Part shown: positions 2,430-22,986 of the stretch, piece after piece
How the letters are laid out: every line of letters begins with the position of its first letter
Numbering within the stretch: position 1 is the first letter of the stretch
Assembly (NCBI GenBank): GCA_019057375.1
Contig: DXJF01000128.1
Coordinates: forward strand, 1 to 22,986
Reading direction: 5' to 3'
DNA: 22,986 bases
DNA from: Candidatus Heimdallarchaeota archaeon
GTDB taxonomy: Archaea; Asgardarchaeota; Heimdallarchaeia; Heimdallarchaeales; Heimdallarchaeaceae
The notes under the pieces: generated by a model
The model's input: the letters and a program-made list of their open reading frames with translations, nothing else
Told to the model about the DNA's origin: nothing
The model's database searches: none
Position numbers and translations under genes: made by a program

Positions 2430-3437
2430 CTACGACCTTCTTTTTTTTCTAATGTAAATCAAACCTGAAAGTAGAGTAATAGCAGCTAATATTGACATGA
2501 TTGAGAAAGGAGTTTTTTCAATTGAGATATAGACTTCCAAATCATTAATCTCAAATAAGCTGTCTACTAAAAATATGAAAATATCACCAAGAGCTTGTTC
2601 TCCTTCAATCCATTCAATAGAGCTAAAATCAAACTCGAAATTTTGTATTATTGTTCCAAGAGGTGTACCAAAAAGAAAAGCTGTTTTAAAACCAATCAGT
2701 GATAATTTAACATTGGAAAAATCTAAGGTTATATTACTTAGAAGTGTATTAAATGTGGGACTTTTATCTTCAATAGCTATTTCAGTAAAATAGATATCAT
2801 CAGAATCAGTCCATGATAGCTCTTCACCTAAAACTATTACATTCAATCTAATTGTTCCTTTCAGTAGAACAATAGGAGTAAGTTCTAGTCCAACCGATTG
2901 TATCTCTGGTAATTCAGGAATCTCAATATCATTTACTGTAAAGAGGATAGGGCTGAAATTTATGGGAATCGTGATATTTTCGCCCAATAAGGTCTCAAAA
3001 TCAGCAAATGATTCACTTTCACCTTCCATCACATCAATATAAACAGGTCCAGTACTGGGAGTTACTATAATTATTGTACCATTTAATCCGAGAGTAAAAT
3101 TTCCTGGATTACTTCCTATTTGTAACCCAAATTCTGTAGTGCCATCTTTGACATCCTTGTTCAAGTATGAAGTAAAATTAAGTGGTACATGCATATTAGT
3201 GTTAAAAGATAGTCTTGGTGCAATTGCATATCCCAATGTGTCATTTGCAATATTAAAGAATAAATTTATATTATAATCTTTAGTGAAATTTATTAAACTA
3301 GAAGAAGTAAACCAATCTTCTATATTTTCAACTGTATCCTTCTGAAATTCAGCTGCAACATCACTATTTAGTGATTGAAAACTAATACTGATTAGAATAG
3401 TTAACGTGATTATAGTAAATATTTGTTTCTTCTTCAT
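2430..3437 (-). CDS. Secreted, C-terminally anchored acidic surface (glyco)protein with a PGF-CTERM-like sorting tail
   Basis: Start reassigned to ATG 3437 (MKKKQIFTIITLTILISISF..., signal peptide). C-terminus KTPF-SIMSILAAITLLSGLIYI-RKKRRS. Eight N-x-S/T sequons. Confidence 0.75.
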   Translation of the reverse strand: MKKKQIFTIITLTILISISFQSLNSDVAAEFQKDTVENIEDWFTSSSLINFTKDYNINLFFNIANDTLGYAIAPRLSFNTNMHVPLNFTSYLNKDVKDGTTEFGLQIGSNPGNFTLGLNGTIIIVTPSTGPVYIDVMEGESESFADFETLLGENITIPINFSPILFTVNDIEIPELPEIQSVGLELTPIVLLKGTIRLNVIVLGEELSWTDSDDIYFTEIAIEDKSPTFNTLLSNITLDFSNVKLSLIGFKTAFLFGTPLGTIIQNFEFDFSSIEWIEGEQALGDIFIFLVDSLFEINDLEVYISIEKTPFSIMSILAAITLLSGLIYIRKKRRS

Positions 3438-6114: not shown

Positions 6115-9100
6115 TTATTGTCTTATAGGGGCCCTACTTCTGAAATCATAGTAAATTTTGGTTATTTCCCTAACAATTTCTTCATTAAAGGTTACAATTA
6201 AAAGAGGATCTCCACTTGGAGCTTTGTGTCCTAAGAAACCTTCTTCTATACCATCTCTGGTTGCCATCATTACTGTTAGGTTTGGATCATCCTTTACAAC
6301 TACATTCCCCATCCCAAGCAATTTACTTAAGATAGTTTTATCTTCATCTGTATGAGCTGTTGTATTTGTTACAATTTCTAGTTTTCTGGCAAAGGTTTCA
6401 ATGAATTCAGAATCTATCCAATTTAGTCTTGGGCAGATTACTGTGGCAGAAGACTTTGTATTTCTCAATAGAGACATCATAGTTCCATTAACTTGTTCGT
6501 TACCTGTTACTATCCACATATCTTCAATTGGATTTGGTTCAATTCCTGATCCCAGTGATAAAACACTCTTGATTAATTTCATTGATTCCCCTGTTGCATC
6601 TAAAGCACCACCAATCTTATTTGGAATTGAACTTAGTGTTCCTGAAATACTAGTGTCTACATTTTCAATTTCTTGTTGAGTTCCTTTGATTATATTCTCT
6701 TTAAAACTCATAAGTTTAGAACTGTAATCATCTTTCTCAGTATCTACAATCTTTGAATCCTCTTGAGTTTCATTTAATTTTTCTGTTAGAGAATTCAAAT
6801 TGGAATCAAATAGGTCAGTTAAAGTTTTTTCTAGATTACTGAGGTCTGCATTAACTGCATCATTTCCGGAAGTTATAGCCTCTGTAAGAGCATCCTTTGT
6901 TCCTTGTATATTAGTTACCAAAGCAGATGAATTTGAATCTGAATTAGTAATAAAACTATTAACTTGATGAGACATGTTTAATTCATAATCATTCTTTTCT
7001 TTTTCAAACTCATTTTGAATTTCTGTGGCATTATTAACAAAGTCAGTCGTCATGCGTTCATAGGATTTCTCTAGATCTCTTTGAACGCTAGTAAACATTG
7101 AATCGATTTCTGTCTGTGCACCTACTTGAAATTCTTTTATGGAGGAGCCCAAATTAGTTGCAAATGAATCAGAGTCAGTTTTAACCCATTTTGGATAATT
7201 TGCGCCAAGCTTTTGAAGCTCTCCCTTAGTAATAGCAAGTGCTTCATCTAATAATGATGATTTCTCAGGAGAAACATTTAATTCTGCCAATACACCTTCA
7301 GTACCTTCAATAAACTGTTGGACTTCTTGCTCAATTAGATCATTAATCTCGGTTTCAACCTTTGCTGTTTGAGCACTATAGTTTTTAGCAGCCTCATCTA
7401 GAGTGACAGAAATGTCAGTATCAAGAGCCTCTTTCGCAGATTTAAATTCACTTTGCAAAGATTTCATTGTTACATCCATTGAGGAAGTAGCTTTGGTTAC
7501 TAATTTGGAATGATCATCGATGTTTGTCTTAAGTAATTCCTGAAGATTAGTTATTACTTCGATATTATTCTTCTTCATTACATCAAGAATTTCTTGTTTT
7601 GTTGTTTGCAGAGCTTCTAGACCGTCTTGAATTGTCAGATGAATTTCTGTTTGACCTTCATTATCTTCAGTTGAATCTGGAGCTTGGAGAAGTTCATCTA
7701 ATGAACCACTTATGGATTTAGTTATGTCCGAAAATGCCTTAGATTCAGCTCCTATTACATCAGCTAATGATTTAGTGCTTGTTCCTTGTAGCTCATTAAA
7801 TTGCTCTTCATAAGTGTTATAAGTTTCTTCAATAGTTCTTTTCATATCATCTGAAGATGCTGTAAATTGACTACTGATTTCACTCCTTGAAATGTCAAAT
7901 GATTGGCTGGTTTTTTGAAGGGTATCTGTTGTGAATCTTGCTAAATCTTCTAATCTTATATTCATTTTTTCAAATATCTCATTAGACAAAGAATTCATTG
8001 AATTTGTCAATGTTTGAATCATTTCCTCCATTTTAATTCCAACATTCTCCTTTACTAGCTCAATATCTCTATTCATACTTCCGATTAGTTGAGCCATACG
8101 TGGTCCCTCTTCTTTTCCAAATACTTTTTGAAGCTGTTTCTCATCTAATCCTTGAAATGCTTGGTTAATCACTTCAATTTTTGCAATTGATGATTTAAGC
8201 TGATCATCTAATTCTTGTAATCTTTCAAGGCTAGTTTGATAGTTAATCTGAACAACGTTAGGTACTTCATCCCTAACATCTCTTCCTCTTTTAGAAAATT
8301 CATCTGAAAAAACTTCAACATCAGATTTGAATTTGTTTTCCTTTTCAGTTATTAGATTTTGAATTGTTTCGTTGTTATCCTTAACGTTTTTCTCAATATT
8401 AGAAATAACAGTGGCTTTTAATTCATTAATATGAGAAGTAAAGTTCTCTTTGAATTCCTCATGTGAGATAGCAAACTTTTCTTTCCTCTCATTCAAAGCC
8501 TTTTCATATTTTTTAGTTGTTTTCGATAATTTATCTAAATACGCGTTAGTTGATTCTCTAAAAGCAGTCATTATGTCTTCTACAAATAGTTTGATTTGAT
8601 TACTTACATTTTCAATTGAAGAAGACAGATTTTCTTCAAACAGATTGAAACCAATTTCTATTCCTGAATTAAGTAAAGATAGTAGATTATCACTATTCTT
8701 TTTGAATTCTTTAAGATATGAGGCTAAATCATTACTCAGTTTAACTTTCATTTCCTCTGTTTTCGCTTCAGCTTGTGTAATTAAATCTCCCAGCTTTTCA
8801 ACAGAATCAACTTTAGTTTTATTCAGTAAATCAACAAACTGATTCTCATTCCCTCTCAAAATATTTACTGCTGTTTCTTTTGATTTATCAATTGAGGTTC
8901 TTATTCTGTCTGTTGTTGCGTCTTCAAGTTTTTTCAATTCATCATTTAATGAAATAAGAATCTGCTGTACTTTTACTTGATATTCGTCAAGCTTTTTCTC
9001 ATAGTTTGCGATAATTTTGTTTACTGTATCTGAAAGCTTCTTAGAGGAATCTCTCACAACTACGTTTGAATCTGCTGAGATCTTTTTAACAGCTTCATCA

Positions 9101-9888
9101 GTAACAGATATAATTACACCTTTTCGATCTGCTGCAGCTTCTATGAATTCCTGAAGCTGTACTGCTAAGCTTTCTTTTATCCCTCCAACTTTTTCAAGAA
9201 GAGCATCAAGTTGTATTTGAGTTCTATCATCATGCTCTTTTTGCAGAAAACCTAGTCTTTCCTCTATTTTTACTTTGAATGAATCATGATGTTCGCCTAT
9301 TTTGTGAATCGTAGAATCAAAAGAACTAAGAACATTCTCTTTTACTCTTTGAGCAGTTTTTGCAATAGCTTCACTGTTTGTCGCAGAAATATTGGAGGTT
9401 TCTGATTTTAGCCGTTCAATCATTTCAGCTGTTTCAGTTTTTCCTGATGAAACTACGTTTGTTAATGAATCCAAAAATTTAGTAGCAGTTGATGCAATTT
9501 CAGAGGCATGATCATCAACATTTTCTGTAATATTTACATGAAATGCTGATAATTGGGATCTAAAATTATTCATTGTTTTATTCCAATCTTCTTTTACATC
9601 ATCACTTAATGCTTTTAATTCAGTTTCTAGACGAATAGATACATCCTCTGTAAGCTTAATTTGTGGGGGGAGTGGAATGAAATATGAGGTTCCCTCTTGG
9701 TTTTTAGCTTTGATTTCTCTAATATATCCTTTGCCAGCTAAGCTATTTAGAGCACTTTGGATTGTATTTGTGGGGTGTTTGTAATATGTTTGAATTTGAC
9801 CGATGGTTCTATAACCATATTGAACAATAATTGAATAAACCTGAACTTCATCTTTCGATAAACCAATCTTTTCTAATGTTCCTTCCAT
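6115..9888 (-). CDS. Giant TrmB-like protein: N-terminal winged HTH, ~1040-aa largely hendecad helical rod, C-terminal TrmB effector/PLD-like domain
   Basis: Start likely ATG 9888 (GAAGTGA RBS, 5 nt spacing). N-terminus LEKIGLSKDEVQVYSII...SALNSLAGKGYI...YFIPLPP matches the TrmB wHTH pattern. The C-terminal ~137 aa (MWIVTGNEQV...ATVICP...LEIVT...MMATRDGIEEGFLG...NEEIVREI) match the layout of the TrmB C-terminal domain. 11-residue periodicity lies between them. Confidence 0.8.
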   Translation of the reverse strand: MEGTLEKIGLSKDEVQVYSIIVQYGYRTIGQIQTYYKHPTNTIQSALNSLAGKGYIREIKAKNQEGTSYFIPLPPQIKLTEDVSIRLETELKALSDDVKEDWNKTMNNFRSQLSAFHVNITENVDDHASEIASTATKFLDSLTNVVSSGKTETAEMIERLKSETSNISATNSEAIAKTAQRVKENVLSSFDSTIHKIGEHHDSFKVKIEERLGFLQKEHDDRTQIQLDALLEKVGGIKESLAVQLQEFIEAAADRKGVIISVTDEAVKKISADSNVVVRDSSKKLSDTVNKIIANYEKKLDEYQVKVQQILISLNDELKKLEDATTDRIRTSIDKSKETAVNILRGNENQFVDLLNKTKVDSVEKLGDLITQAEAKTEEMKVKLSNDLASYLKEFKKNSDNLLSLLNSGIEIGFNLFEENLSSSIENVSNQIKLFVEDIMTAFRESTNAYLDKLSKTTKKYEKALNERKEKFAISHEEFKENFTSHINELKATVISNIEKNVKDNNETIQNLITEKENKFKSDVEVFSDEFSKRGRDVRDEVPNVVQINYQTSLERLQELDDQLKSSIAKIEVINQAFQGLDEKQLQKVFGKEEGPRMAQLIGSMNRDIELVKENVGIKMEEMIQTLTNSMNSLSNEIFEKMNIRLEDLARFTTDTLQKTSQSFDISRSEISSQFTASSDDMKRTIEETYNTYEEQFNELQGTSTKSLADVIGAESKAFSDITKSISGSLDELLQAPDSTEDNEGQTEIHLTIQDGLEALQTTKQEILDVMKKNNIEVITNLQELLKTNIDDHSKLVTKATSSMDVTMKSLQSEFKSAKEALDTDISVTLDEAAKNYSAQTAKVETEINDLIEQEVQQFIEGTEGVLAELNVSPEKSSLLDEALAITKGELQKLGANYPKWVKTDSDSFATNLGSSIKEFQVGAQTEIDSMFTSVQRDLEKSYERMTTDFVNNATEIQNEFEKEKNDYELNMSHQVNSFITNSDSNSSALVTNIQGTKDALTEAITSGNDAVNADLSNLEKTLTDLFDSNLNSLTEKLNETQEDSKIVDTEKDDYSSKLMSFKENIIKGTQQEIENVDTSISGTLSSIPNKIGGALDATGESMKLIKSVLSLGSGIEPNPIEDMWIVTGNEQVNGTMMSLLRNTKSSATVICPRLNWIDSEFIETFARKLEIVTNTTAHTDEDKTILSKLLGMGNVVVKDDPNLTVMMATRDGIEEGFLGHKAPSGDPLLIVTFNEEIVREITKIYYDFRSRAPIRQ

Positions 9889-9902
9889 TTTAATCACTTC
9901 TT

Positions 9903-11351
9903 TTACAATTGATCTTTTATTGTTTCAAGATTCCTTTCTAGTCTTTCTAATCGACCTATGAGATCTTTTCTCAACTTTTCTGCTTGTTCTGCTTTTTTGA
10001 TATTGTCCTTTGCTTCAATTTCAAGATTAGCTACAGTCGAATCTTGTGTTTCAACAATCTTGCTTTTTGCATTCGAGGACATAGTTGAAATTTCAGCTAT
10101 AGTATCTTTTTGAGCTGAATCTATTCTTGAGGTAATTTGTTGACTTGTTCTTTCTAAGGAATCTTTTACATCAGTAATTTCCTTTTCAAGAATCGATATT
10201 CTTTCTTCTGCTGTTTTTGCAGCATTACCTTGTAGATTTTCAGATTTTTCAACAACGGTTGTTAAAATATTATCTAAATGGCTTTTAACATCGTCCTGTT
10301 CCCTTGACACAAAGGATTTTATTTCTTGCTTAATTGAATCTGATTGTTCAGAAAGAGTTGATAAAATTCCATCCACTTTATTGTTGAAATCCCCTTCAAG
10401 CTCTTTAAGTTCAGAACCATGTTCATTATATTGTTTATTTGTTAAATTATCATAAGATCCTAGCATTGATTCCTTAGATGAATTGAAATTTGACATAGCT
10501 ACTTCATTAACATCAATCATTCCAGTTTCATATTCTGCTAAAACGTCTTGTACTTTTGCAATTTCATCAACAAGATACTTGTCCATGGAATCGGTTACAT
10601 CAGATAATTCAGATTGAATTCTTTGAACTGCGTTATTAACAAGCTGTCCTAATTCACTTTTTATTCGATTAAAGCTTTCAAAGACAGATTCCATGTTTTC
10701 AGTTAACTTATCACCATATTCTGATCTTAAATGTTCTATAGATTCTTTCATGATGTTTTGAGCAATATTAATGTTAGATTCAATCTTTGCTCTCATATCT
10801 TCTGAATTGTTCTTGAAGGTTGAAAGATTATTTCCCTTTACAGTACTGACATCTTCTTTTACACTATCAATTGCTTTTCTAAAAGCATTGACTTGATTGT
10901 TTGCTAATCGTTCTAAATCTTGTTCATGGTTTGTAAGAGTGGTTCTTATTTTTTCACCAAATGAAGAAGAATACTCCACAAAATTGGTTCTTCCTTCGTC
11001 TAAAATAGAAGCAATAGATTCTTGTAGTTTAGATAATTCATTTTTTGTATTGTCTAACTTCGATATTACAGATTCTGATTGACTTTTAGTCCATTCATCA
11101 ATTAGTTTTTTATCTTCAGATACATTTGCTTCAATAATTTCATCTAATGACTGTCTATTTGTGTCAATTAAATTGCGTAAATTCTCATTCAAACCAATAA
11201 ACTTGTTTTGAACTAAAGTTGCTAGAATTTGATAAAATTGATGTAATTCCTTCAAGTTTTCTAGAGATTCTTTAAAATTTACAATCTCTCCATCTAAATT
11301 TTCAATTTCCCTTTTTACTTTTTCTAAATCTTTTGTTATTCTTTCTGACAT
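9903..11351 (-). CDS. All-helical hendecad-repeat (coiled-coil or apolipoprotein-like) protein
   Basis: Start likely ATG 11351 (AGGTGA RBS overlapping the upstream TAG). No Pro or Cys in the whole protein; 32 consecutive 11-mers. Confidence 0.8.
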   Translation of the reverse strand: MSERITKDLEKVKREIENLDGEIVNFKESLENLKELHQFYQILATLVQNKFIGLNENLRNLIDTNRQSLDEIIEANVSEDKKLIDEWTKSQSESVISKLDNTKNELSKLQESIASILDEGRTNFVEYSSSFGEKIRTTLTNHEQDLERLANNQVNAFRKAIDSVKEDVSTVKGNNLSTFKNNSEDMRAKIESNINIAQNIMKESIEHLRSEYGDKLTENMESVFESFNRIKSELGQLVNNAVQRIQSELSDVTDSMDKYLVDEIAKVQDVLAEYETGMIDVNEVAMSNFNSSKESMLGSYDNLTNKQYNEHGSELKELEGDFNNKVDGILSTLSEQSDSIKQEIKSFVSREQDDVKSHLDNILTTVVEKSENLQGNAAKTAEERISILEKEITDVKDSLERTSQQITSRIDSAQKDTIAEISTMSSNAKSKIVETQDSTVANLEIEAKDNIKKAEQAEKLRKDLIGRLERLERNLETIKDQL

Positions 11352-11360
11352 CTTACTCAC

Positions 11361-20572: not shown

Positions 20573-20791
20573 TTATCCAAAGGTAGGTTTCCCTTTGGAA
20601 CTATGACGAGTTCGTTTCTTCTTCTGTGTTTTATAATAGGGTGATTTATTGAGCAAAATGCCTCTTACTGTTGGTTTGAATAGTTTAATTAAGAATCTCC
20701 TAAAACTAATTTTCTTCTTGAATACTTTGATGAAATCTTCAAAAGAGTATCTTTGGAATTTGAGTAACTTTTGTGCTTCTGTTGTATCCAT
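20573..20791 (-). CDS. Small basic hypothetical protein (72 aa)
   Basis: Lys/Arg/Phe-rich ORF occupying the gap upstream of dnaK. No motif recognised. Confidence 0.4.
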   Translation of the reverse strand: MDTTEAQKLLKFQRYSFEDFIKVFKKKISFRRFLIKLFKPTVRGILLNKSPYYKTQKKKRTRHSSKGKPTFG

Positions 20792-20956
20792 CAGAATTTA
20801 ATTCACTAAATTTTCCCAAATCATTATTAGTAATAGATAAATAACAATTTTCTATAAAACTATTCCTTTTTTTCCTAAAACATATTGGGAAAGTAGTTTT
20901 GTAACATTTACAATAAATCTACCAAGCAGAAAAATAAAATTAAAAAAAGGAAAAGA

Positions 20957-20999
20957 GGAGAAAGAGATTACCACTGTGATTGGATGAGTAATTCTCTCC
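20957..20999 (-). terminator. Imperfect hairpin followed by a long T-tract (terminator-like) downstream of the tnpB non-coding region
   Basis: Minus strand ggagagaattac...gtaatctctttctcc followed by ttttcctttttttaattttattttt. Confidence 0.45.
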
Positions 21000-21009
21000 C
21001 CAAAAACCT

Positions 21010-21285
21010 GTGACAGTTTTCAAGAAGGTCCTTTCAAGACTCCTCCTAAACCGGTGTAACAAAGGGTAGGCAAAGTAGCAGAACTGTACAAAATGAAAAA
21101 ACAATCGATTCATAATGGATCAGTTACCAGTCTTCCGGAACAGAAATTACATTGTTGTAAATCCATTCAAAGGAATCATCTCTTGTTACAAGAGGGCACT
21201 CATTACCGAACTTGTCGAACTAATTAAATGACAGATTCTCGACCTGGCACATCGAATTAAGAGAAACGATGTATTCTTAACAGAA
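21010..21285 (-). ncRNA. Candidate omegaRNA (reRNA) scaffold
   Basis: Non-coding, less AT-rich region directly 3' of tnpB, with hairpins at 21180-21194 (ctcttgt/acaagag) and 21022-21047 (aggagg-a-gtct tgaaa ggac-cttctt). This is the position expected for TnpB guide RNAs. Boundaries are inferred. Confidence 0.45.
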
Positions 21286-22821
21286 TCACTTAAGCCATTG
21301 ACCTAAGGGCTGTAGACACTTGTATAGTCTTAGCGGGTGGAAGTCATCTGTTAGCAAATCCCATATGCTGTTGAACTTTGTTTTCAAAGCATATTGAATT
21401 AACCTCTTTCCTATGTTCTTTGCTCCGTTCAGATCAGCATCCAATTCATAGTTACAATTGTGGCAATTGAACTGTCCTTGTCCTGTACGGGTAGTGTTTT
21501 TAGAATTACACTTCGAACATGTTTTCGAGGTCCAACTTTCTCCTATTGCTACCACTCGATGGGATTCAAATCCATAACGATTAAGCTTGTGCTTAAGTTT
21601 AGTTATAAAGAAGCGATAACACCACTTATGCAGTTTTCTTCTTAAGGATTTATTTCCGCTACCTCGAGGGTGACTTTTCCGAATATTCTTAGGATAGCCA
21701 ACAGATACAAACAGATTGTAGCTATTCTTCAACTGGAGAATGAAATCAACTAGTTGGTTAACTGCATAACCCAGTTCCTGTTTTGTAACAGAGCGAAGTC
21801 TTCTACGTAATTGGTAGAGTTTAGCATTAAGCTGTTTAGTAGGTTGACCATTGTTGTTTTGAGTATCCAACAACCTTTGAATAGACTTAATCCGGTTATC
21901 TAGTTGCCACATTCTAGACTGTCTTTCCTTATTAACGATGAAGCAGAGTTCATCCATAATTACTTTCCCAGAAGGGGTAAGTAACACCGCAACAGCTGTC
22001 TTCTTAATTCCTAGATCAACGCCCAACACTGCTGGGGGGTGAGTAGATTGATAAAGAGGGACAGCATATTGGAGGGTGAAATGAGCCCACCACTGTTGTT
22101 CTTTGGATTTGTATACTAGTTCCAATGTTTTTATCTTCTCTAGTATCAGCTTCTTCTCGTGATAAGGTGAATATGCCAAAGGTAGCATCAGTCTCTTATG
22201 GTATCTTCTACCAGAACGTTTCGAATTAAGAGAATCCCTTAACTCTAGCCAAAGTTTAGCTTCAGTATTCTCAGGAGTGGGAATAACTTGAAACCGGTCT
22301 TTACCTATTGATCCTTTGAACTGTATTCGTGGGACCTTTTTCTTGAAACGTGGTCTATTCAGCTCCTTTTCAGAAAGCTCTTGTTGTGTTTTCCAGCATT
22401 CATAAGTCCAGATAGCTTTATCTCTACATTCGATGAATTCATCGTGGGAACAGCGAGGATAACGTTTCTTCAAGTCGTGAGGAACAGATGTTCGTAGTTT
22501 GTGTTGCGTTTTTCTAGATGTAGTTAAAGTCAATTTGTCCAAGAAGGCTTTGTCGACTTTTCCATCTTTTCGCAGTATTTTCTCCTCGTTGTGGTAGATG
22601 ATTCGAAGGTAGTCTTTGATGATTCTGGAGTCTCGGTTGTTAATTAGTCTCAACCTGTCACACTCTTGAGCAGTCATCAGTTCTGTCTTTATCCTGAGAG
22701 GGACAACTTCATAACCAGTAACTAATGGTGCTTGGTGTGTGCTTGTAACAACTCTATCTTTCTCATCTTTCTTGTTTTCACTTACTGATTGTTTTTGTTT
22801 ATTATTTGCTTTGTATGTCAT
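21286..22821 (-). CDS. tnpB: TnpB/Cas12f-like RNA-guided nuclease (~511 aa) with rearranged RuvC site
   Basis: Start reassigned to ATG 22821 (AGGAAGTGA RBS). RuvC-I VLGVDLG, bridge helix, RuvC-II position VSVGYP, GESWTSKTCSKC...CHNC zinc finger, and RuvC-III DADLNGAKNI. Confidence 0.88.
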   Translation of the reverse strand: MTYKANNKQKQSVSENKKDEKDRVVTSTHQAPLVTGYEVVPLRIKTELMTAQECDRLRLINNRDSRIIKDYLRIIYHNEEKILRKDGKVDKAFLDKLTLTTSRKTQHKLRTSVPHDLKKRYPRCSHDEFIECRDKAIWTYECWKTQQELSEKELNRPRFKKKVPRIQFKGSIGKDRFQVIPTPENTEAKLWLELRDSLNSKRSGRRYHKRLMLPLAYSPYHEKKLILEKIKTLELVYKSKEQQWWAHFTLQYAVPLYQSTHPPAVLGVDLGIKKTAVAVLLTPSGKVIMDELCFIVNKERQSRMWQLDNRIKSIQRLLDTQNNNGQPTKQLNAKLYQLRRRLRSVTKQELGYAVNQLVDFILQLKNSYNLFVSVGYPKNIRKSHPRGSGNKSLRRKLHKWCYRFFITKLKHKLNRYGFESHRVVAIGESWTSKTCSKCNSKNTTRTGQGQFNCHNCNYELDADLNGAKNIGKRLIQYALKTKFNSIWDLLTDDFHPLRLYKCLQPLGQWLK

Positions 22822-22889
22822 AAATTTCACTTCCTGAAATTGTTTCTTTGGAATAAACATGGAAATCCTTTTTGAAAAGTCATAATCGA

Positions 22890-22934
22890 TGGTTCCTCTT
22901 CTAGTCTTAATATTTGAAACCAGTAGAGGAACCA
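22890..22934. repeat. 10-bp perfect inverted repeat TGGTTCCTCT / AGAGGAACCA (candidate left-end hairpin)
   Basis: Arms at 22890-22899 and 22925-22934 with a 25-nt loop, ~70 bp upstream of the tnpB start. Confidence 0.6.
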
Positions 22935-22986
22935 CCGGTTGTACTACGTGTAAAATTGCTTCAGATTCTCAAAATGGAAATCCTGA

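Follow-up and report, generated by a model that had tools for sequence, protein, structure and literature searches.

What kind of nuclease is encoded at the end of this Asgard archaeal contig, and does its rearranged active site bear on the origin of the eukaryotic Fanzors? The window analysed here is the entire contig C79, a stretch of 22,986 nucleotides (nt) from a genome of Candidatus Heimdallarchaeota archaeon (3.47 Mb, 159 contigs, 89% complete), and the gene in question is a tnpB on its minus strand whose translation is referred to below as P0001. The initial annotation had described the product as a TnpB/Cas12f-like nuclease with a Fanzor-type active site, and had offered two origins for it in an Asgard host, kinship with the Fanzor stem or a rearrangement that arose separately. 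We found that the gene, as posed, is a further member of an already described TnpB type. The best explanation overall, to which we give a probability of about three in four, is a TnpB/omegaRNA nuclease of known class that forms the end of a transposase-less island. The idea that a Fanzor-type site in an Asgard archaeon marks a possible root of the eukaryotic Fanzors fails, and nothing here is special for eukaryogenesis. The gene and the elements of its active site are located as follows.

21286-22821, minus strand: tnpB open reading frame (ORF), stop codon included, 511 amino acids (aa), P0001; supported by Pfam, NCBIfam, AlphaFold2 (AF2) and structural matches
22015-22017, minus strand: RuvC-I Asp269 (VDLG), invariant in 94 sequences, at the end of strand 263-270
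21697-21699, minus strand: Gly375 (SVGYP) where RuvC-II canonically has Glu, closing strand 369-376
21538-21540, minus strand: relocated RuvC-II Glu428 (GESWTS), invariant, directly after strand 423-427, within the Ealt pattern match
21454-21519, minus strand: C4 zinc ribbon (C435, C438, C453 and C456), three Cys invariant and C456 at least 90% conserved, within the PF07282 match
21433-21435, minus strand: RuvC-III Asp463 (ADLNG), invariant, at the start of helix 462-479

The translation contains no internal stop. Its exact start codon is uncertain because the frame remains open upstream of 22821 as far as the contig end and two paralogues have no ATG at the equivalent position. Members of the TnpB/Cas12 superfamily are recognised by a C-terminal RuvC domain with an inserted zinc ribbon (PF07282; NCBIfam guided_TnpB), and this arrangement is present in P0001. 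The Cas12f1-like TNB domain PF07282 was matched at residues 403-470 (3.5e-15, 56 bits with a cut-off of 26), and guided_TnpB (NF040570) scored 98.2 bits, slightly below its cut-off of 100. The AF2 model, built from a 94-sequence alignment, has a predicted local distance difference test score (pLDDT) of 90.3 and a predicted template modelling score (pTM) of 0.84, and its sole disordered part is the Lys-rich N-terminus (residues 1-26). The model has the full-length WED-REC-RuvC-TNB fold, with structural matches over residues 35-483. The VIA-align matches to this model were OsCas12f (Z 20.5), AsCas12f (Z 20.1), SpCas12f1 (Z 19.8), ISDra2 TnpB (Z 18.1), ISFba1 TnpB (Z 17.1) and the mimivirus Fanzor2, ApmFanzor2 (Z 16.5), where those to OsCas12f and AsCas12f extend over about 380 residues. 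A profile of the family searched against Protein Data Bank (PDB) sequences gave AsCas12f at 2e-40, the mimivirus Fanzor2 at 1.7e-21, ISDra2 TnpB at 6e-12 and the Guillardia Fanzor1 at 0.07. The TnpB/Cas12f-like identity proposed at first is thus upheld, as is the large size of the protein, since the described TnpBs with a relocated glutamate have about 400 aa. Judged by its sequence and predicted structure, the gene is an intact member of the TnpB/Cas12f-like class, and P0001 is very probably an active omegaRNA-guided nuclease.

All active-site coordinates given by the initial annotation hold: the aspartates of RuvC-I and of RuvC-III are intact, glycine replaces the RuvC-II glutamate, and a glutamate follows 53 residues later, six residues ahead of the first CxxC. 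This glutamate does stand where canonical TnpBs have proline, as a phmmer alignment to AsCas12f places IGESWTSKTC of P0001 over IDPQYTSQRC with E428 on the canonical Pro. We gathered 78 homologues from a 90%-clustered database and 150 representatives from a 50%-clustered library. In an alignment of 167 homologues, the four active-site columns read D-G-E-D in 135 and D-E-P-D in 20; the column of position 375 holds Gly in the former number and Glu in the 20 canonical sequences. The two RuvC-II columns thus covary cleanly, as G with E or as E with P, and this pattern is not due to chance. In the curated 94-sequence alignment, D269, G271, E428, S432, C435, C438, R445, C453 and D463 were found to be invariant, and G375 is conserved at 90% or more. 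The active-site pattern is also kept in the six full paralogues and the one fragment found in the same genome.

In the AF2 model, G375 closes its strand and E428 lies right behind the next RuvC strand, which is the arrangement described for the RIIr TnpBs as a shift of the glutamate from beta-4 to beta-5 (PMC10691335). The published Ealt pattern, D{P}G x(120,160) E x6 CxxC x(12,18) CxxC x(4,8) D (PMC10711439), matches residues 269-463 in its form without DPG, and the DPG version gives no match. P0001 thus carries DLG instead of the Fanzor-typical DPG, as had been noted. The relocated-glutamate site of prokaryotes was named TnpB2 by Jiang et al., who reported that the archaeal TvTnpB of Thermoplasma volcanium cuts DNA with the target-adjacent motif (TAM) NTGAC and without collateral activity, and that ApmFNuc E467A is dead, the alternative glutamate being essential (PMC10530073). 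Altae-Tran et al. defined RIIr branches with an E to G change and an alternative glutamate, some of them almost exclusively archaeal, among several independent RuvC-II rearrangements over the TnpB tree (PMC10691335). Yoon et al. divided Ecan from Ealt proteins and tied the Fanzors to cyanobacterial IS607 'pro-Fanzors' that combine DPG with Ealt (PMC10711439). By its residues, the active site of P0001 is that of this widespread prokaryotic class (Ealt, TnpB2 or RIIr), described in 2023.

The phylogenetic placement decides between this class and the two origins that had been suggested. We built a FastTree tree of 123 rows, without bootstrap, on a sample centred on the query that contains one Fanzor-like sequence (P0224) on a long branch. 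The window family and a sister tier at 45% identity form a supported group (100), nested in a clade of 59 rows (starred support, 100) and then in one of 83 rows (weak support, 78), and every row of these two clades is Ealt. The larger clade reaches down to about 23% identity and all of its rows have Gly, or another non-Glu residue, together with the relocated Glu; two changes of the Ealt/Ecan state suffice on the whole tree. An Asgard 'Fanzor stem', in which the protein is close to the lineage ancestral to the eukaryotic Fanzors, would agree with the relocated glutamate, the Asgard host, the disordered Lys-rich N-terminus and the clear though not top match to the mimivirus Fanzor2. We consider it very improbable because P0001 has DLG where DPG is near-universal in Fanzors, because the reported pro-Fanzors are cyanobacterial, and because Cas12f is matched far better and Fanzor1 hardly at all. 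Furthermore P0224, the lone protein of the sample with both DPG and Ealt and a match to Fanzor2 at 4e-29, lies in the other half of this tree, with the same sampling of a single Fanzor-like sequence. The nearest relatives are therefore neither Fanzors nor pro-Fanzors, and the host is neither a eukaryote nor a giant virus: archaeal dnaK and dnaJ genes lie on the contig, and the homologues come from genomes named Candidatus Heimdallarchaeaceae or Heimdallarchaeota, which bears out the Asgard host. We give equally little credence to a G/E rearrangement that arose independently inside the Heimdallarchaeal family. Independent rearrangements are on record elsewhere in the TnpB tree, but all 83 rows of the surrounding clade share the non-Glu residue and the relocated Glu, and the tree of 123 rows needs no more than the two state changes. 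The relocated glutamate of the initial annotation thus stands, its special link to Fanzors does not, and neither of its two proposed origins is supported by this query-centred sample. The D-G-E-D residues, like the zinc ribbon, are invariant in the family and in the wider clade around it.

The family is multi-copy and confined to Heimdallarchaeaceae. At E <= 1e-40, the other genomes of the window's own family gave matches in 16 of 30 cases, whereas 52 genomes from six other families of the class gave none. Two single-contig (closed) genomes hold 11-14 matches each, some with stop codons; the paralogues of the window genome (six full copies at 62-81% identity and the 3' fragment) have none. The sequences give the family the profile of a mobile, partly decaying element under purifying selection.

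The right end of the element lies downstream of tnpB, and the features in this region, followed in the direction of transcription, are as follows.

20984-21313, minus strand: structured 3' region, putative omegaRNA scaffold, which overlaps the last tnpB codons and ends in the conserved …GAGAATTACTCAT
20964-20983, minus strand: hypervariable guide segment CCAATCACAGTGGTAATCTC, which differs between all copies and matches the antisense of an epimerase gene
20942-20965, minus strand: pyrimidine-rich/oligo-T tract directly behind the guide, not present in sister genomes at this locus
20793-20941, minus strand: tail module of the inserted DNA, AT-rich with a TATA-like TTTTATAGAAAA; sister homology runs from 20792 onward only
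20573-20791, minus strand: duplicated 3' fragment (last 72 codons) of a short-chain dehydrogenase/reductase (SDR) epimerase/dehydratase gene; sisters have one 341-aa ORF across this point

The alignable part of the paralogues begins about 320 nt upstream of the ATG and extends some 300 nt beyond the stop, and their similarity stops sharply at …GA(G/A)AAT(A/T)ACTCAT, which is window position 20984. The sister tier at 45% identity keeps the identical terminal …AATAACTCAT. An alignment of the 330-nt 3' region in 19 copies (window 21313-20984) has a mean column identity of 63%, and 23 of the 56 pairs of its consensus fold are kept through changes on both sides. As an example, the pair of columns 271-364 is CG in eight copies, UA in seven and UG in four. 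We take this region, with the features of a structured guide RNA, to be a putative omegaRNA scaffold. No Rfam family was matched by the region, no tRNA was found in the window, and a scan with bacterial promoter and terminator models was uninformative, the host being archaeal.

The first hairpin of the 3' region overlaps the conserved C-terminal codons (PLGQWLK). This hairpin, CTTAGGTCAATGGCTTAAG (window 21289-21307, minus strand), spans the last codons and the tnpB stop and is near-invariant in the 19 copies, so that constraint from the protein and from the RNA alike seems to act on these codons. A separate observation concerns the paralogue on contig C72 (L004, reverse-complemented), where two tandem omegaRNA 3' termini (…GAGAATAACTCAT) were observed with right ends at 3333 and 3515. 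They are 182 nt apart, each is followed by a different variable segment, and together they have the appearance of a two-unit mini-array.

Behind the right end, each copy carries a segment of its own of about 18-20 nt. In most copies this segment is followed by a tract of the form TCTTTCC…TTTTTTT, found 18-75 nt past the right end and absent from the sisters at three loci. The oligo-T tract probably terminates the omegaRNA, and the AT-rich tail might, more speculatively, be an outward promoter that restarts transcription of the downstream host genes. The first 70 nt or so of the window segment behind the guide are 81% identical (BLAST) to the tail of the fragment on contig C44, and the remainder is similar by eye.

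The extent of the inserted DNA was delimited with eight sister genomes (74-97% identical), whose epimerase gene runs uninterrupted in front of dnaK. They align with the window only from 20792 on; the insertion therefore also takes in the 191 nt that follow the right end, and the guide is stored inside the element. A 'small ORF' at 20791-20573 was considered as an independent gene and rejected, as it repeats the 3' end of the epimerase, which in the sisters is part of the 341-aa ORF. Codons 1-323 of the epimerase are located on contig C81 of the same genome (G000), so that a stretch of about 165 nt is present twice, at 84% identity.

The window guide points to this same gene, which the island divides and in part duplicates. 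The right-end CAT and the first 17 guide nt match the antisense of sister epimerase codons 264-270 (…YYHCDWM…) at 19 of 20 positions. The site (codons 264-269 and the ATG of M270) is the exact start of the duplicated epimerase fragment, and none of 3000 shuffled guides matched the epimerase locus equally well. When the genome itself was searched with the window guide, the epimerase site on C81 was the only one found, with 2 mismatches in 16; within the first 17 positions the mismatches fall at guide positions 7 and 13, and 15 of 20 positions agree overall.

Other copies show related arrangements with a different guide at every locus. The sisters align with the C81 paralogue from 40 nt beyond its right end, and directly to the left of this border the island-free sisters carry a perfect copy of its guide (AAAACCTTCTGTCATTT), where gcvP, the glycine-cleavage P-protein gene, has its start codon; the match is perfect in three sister genomes. 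The gcvP site of the window genome lies on contig C132 (L066 3590-3625) and departs from the C81 guide at guide positions 1, 4, 5 and 16, changes that turn MTEGF into MTEEF, in surroundings that are otherwise about 96% identical to the sisters. For the C80 paralogue the corresponding distance from the right end is 47 nt, and the border falls exactly on a second copy of its guide (18/20). The inserted DNA past the right end of the C44 fragment amounts to about 191 nt, and its guide had no match within the fetched sister loci. Thus in at least three copies the guide forms part of the insertion, and its match is the host locus where the island ends. A second guide copy within 1.5 kb on either side of its own locus was found for two of about 28 family guides, with 0.16 expected, and the local-copy pattern is therefore not general within that distance.

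The tnpB gene is the last gene of a larger inserted unit, whose further features are as follows.

22822-22986 of the window, minus strand: conserved spacer 5' of tnpB, truncated where the contig stops; identity to the C81 copy 97.6%
L008 5837-8569, minus strand: HerA/DUF87-type ATPase gene, about 320 nt upstream of tnpB
L009 1011-3689, plus strand: HerA/DUF87-type ATPase gene, about 320 nt upstream of tnpB
L010 5933-7597, plus strand: HerA/DUF87-type ATPase gene, about 320 nt upstream of tnpB

Where the upstream neighbour of tnpB is visible, it encodes a membrane-anchored HerA/DUF87 ATPase of about 900 aa with a hydrophobic N-terminus and a weak TrwB-like match. This gene is full length on C72 and C80, N-terminally short on C65 and a remnant on C81, and the spacer between it and tnpB is conserved over about 320 nt in the other paralogues. 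Outside this genome, two genomes have the ATPase beside tnpB and a further two have remnants of it. The island ATPases are 49-100% identical among themselves. A more distant version, about 41% identical to them, is present as a single copy in almost every genome of the family, which makes the island ATPases paralogues of a gene of the host. No relevant publication on TnpB together with HerA in Asgard archaea came up in a literature search.

Upstream of the tnpB ATG the window contig continues for another 165 nt. Its last 41 nt (22946-22986) are identical to the end of C132 (L066 1-41), which makes the two contigs neighbours. In the present assembly, the island with the window tnpB at its end measures about 5.8 kb, has its start at the C132 gcvP site and contains, besides a decayed fragment of the ATPase gene, a TIR gene of the CAP12/Pycsar type and a 400-aa ORF. 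The TIR gene (L066 2246-2617, plus strand) encodes 123 aa with a defence-type CAP12/Pycsar effector TIR match at 3.4e-28. A sequence of about 270 nt on the same contig (L066 2657-2926) recurs, 81-91% identical, on at least five other contigs (C77, C117, C84, C153 and C81) and, from this distribution, may be a small non-coding mobile element.

No TnpA, whether a Y1 HUH transposase or a serine recombinase, was found beside tnpB at any of the seven copies, and no Y1 transposase (PF01797) was found in the 89%-complete genome. Four serine recombinase genes (PF00239) are all on other contigs, and the genome's single Cas1 is also on another contig, next to no tnpB copy. The window holds no tandem repeat array of the CRISPR kind, only the one variable segment behind the scaffold. 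Elsewhere in the window, two adjacent large ORFs (1260 and 485 aa; 6115-11360, minus strand) contain long apolipoprotein-like helical repeats, and the 1260-aa ORF has an N-terminal TrmB-type helix-turn-helix domain.

Taken as the nuclease end of a transposase-less island, the locus would work in the following way. P0001 would bind its omegaRNA and cut double-stranded DNA that matches the guide, using D269, E428 and D463, as published relatives with the same site (TvTnpB and ApmFanzor2) do. In this copy the guide lies inside the inserted DNA, between the scaffold and the oligo-T tract with its tail of about 150 nt, and is not read-through host flank. The TnpB/omegaRNA unit would thus form the nuclease end of a non-autonomous island that often carries the HerA-like ATPase gene. 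Its guide would recognise the unoccupied or ancestral form of the element's own insertion locus, and retention or homing of the island would be favoured through break-induced recombination, of which the homing step is the more conjectural.

A broader form of this proposal is that the whole family serves as the right-end module of transposase-less cargo islands, often beside the HerA/FtsK-like ATPase, with the guide as a stored locus-specific copy of the empty site and a nuclease that cuts island-free alleles and so drives or locks in the island, while the resident target escapes through seed changes, as at gcvP. We offer this tentatively and regard it as possible rather than probable. If true, such a system would stand midway between OMEGA elements and type V systems, resembling CRISPR but with a single spacer.

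Several observations weigh against the nuclease-island explanation. The epimerase target is still present in this genome beside its own 5' context with just two mismatches in the first 17 positions, and since the variant at guide position 7 also occurs in island-free sisters, these mismatches do not demonstrate self-protection. The geometry of the targets varies: the window target is antisense and 191 nt off, that of C81 lies left of the island and that of C80 right. The 5' contexts of the three protospacers (TTCTTT; ATCCAT or GTTCAT; TACCAA) share no common motif and yielded no TAM. The reading of the targets may thus be incomplete. The left flank of the island, as assembled, belongs to another locus (gcvP), and on C81 the left flank of the epimerase locus runs into the tnpB of that contig, so that the left island halves are swapped with respect to guides and right flanks; this reflects either an inversion by recombination in the spacer of about 97% identity or an assembly mis-join. 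Finally, the assignment of D269, E428 and D463 as the cutting triad rests on topology in the model and on conservation.

Two other explanations were weighed. The protein could be an RNA-guided DNA binder that does not cut, like TldR or Cas12m, and that represses or marks the epimerase/dnaK region or protects the island. Exapted guide-directed TnpBs are known (PMC10691335), no transposase is present, and the guide aims at a host coding region that the genome retains with the two mismatches. We consider this unlikely, since D269, E428, D463 and the zinc ribbon are kept over the 94 sequences, the protein is full length with no C-terminal truncation of RuvC or catalytic loss of the TldR/Cas12m type, and a multi-copy family with decaying copies and a different guide at each locus resembles a mobile element. 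It is quite unlikely, too, that the unit is an ordinary non-autonomous IS200/IS605-type element, mobilised by a Y1 TnpA in trans, whose guide is read-through host flank. The order of tnpB, structured 3' RNA, sharp end and variable sequence is the classical layout, and the C80 protospacer lies right of the inserted DNA in the classical geometry. This account is contradicted by inserted DNA that goes on past the guide (191, 40, 47 and about 191 nt in the window, C81, C80 and C44), by a window guide that matches the opposite strand of the host gene, by the search of the 89%-complete genome, in which no Y1 transposase was found, and by an inserted unit of several kb with cargo where a 2-kb IS would be expected. 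The nuclease end of a transposase-less island therefore remains our preferred explanation.

The family is well conserved and confidently modelled, and with a definable omegaRNA and a nuclease that is probably collateral-free it can be tested as an editor. The suggestion of a compact editor may still prove right, but with 511 aa the protein exceeds the Cas12f or TnpB editors already in use. The embedded guide, its match to uninterrupted genes of the sister genomes, the one retained target with a recoded seed and the pairing with the HerA-like ATPase suggest a natural island system in Asgard archaea that cuts the empty site, of which we found no description in the searchable papers.

Compared with known systems, the Fanzors (ApmFz2, the mimivirus Fanzor2, PDB 9b0l, and Fanzor1) have the relocated RuvC-II glutamate and the TnpB fold in common with P0001, with Z 16.5 to ApmFz2. 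They differ in their DPG and their eukaryotic or giant-virus hosts, they match the window family more weakly (1.7e-21 for Fanzor2 and 0.07 for Fanzor1), and the Fanzor2-like protein is far off in the tree. The type V-F nucleases AsCas12f, OsCas12f and SpCas12f1 (PDB 8j12, 9nzs and 9i8y) are the best matches both by profile (2e-40) and by structure (Z 19-20.5, about 380 residues aligned), and their domains follow each other in the same order. However, Cas12f keeps the canonical Glu and has Pro at the position of E428, where the window TnpB has Gly and Glu428, and works with a CRISPR array and a tracrRNA, whereas the window has no array.

The Asgard TnpB groups linked to aCas1 (PMC10691335) are associated with Cas1, whereas no Cas1 stands beside any copy of the window family. 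They resemble it, by their published description, in the Asgard host and in a hypervariable stretch right after a conserved T that is followed by a conserved element, which is GTTCACTCA in those groups and the pyrimidine/oligo-T tract in the window family. The TnpB2/Ealt/RIIr proteins, among them TvTnpB (PMC10530073; PMC10711439; PMC10691335), share with P0001 the Gly at RuvC-II, the Glu six residues before CxxC, the D-L-G of RuvC-I, the C4 ribbon, the RuvC-III Asp, an archaeal host and an omegaRNA-like 3' region. TvTnpB has an adjacent IS605 TnpA, whereas the window tnpB stands without one. The window TnpB is also larger (511 aa vs about 400) and its family is restricted to Heimdallarchaeaceae; its guide is embedded in the inserted DNA and followed by the oligo-T tract and the tail, and a HerA-like ATPase gene is often paired with it.

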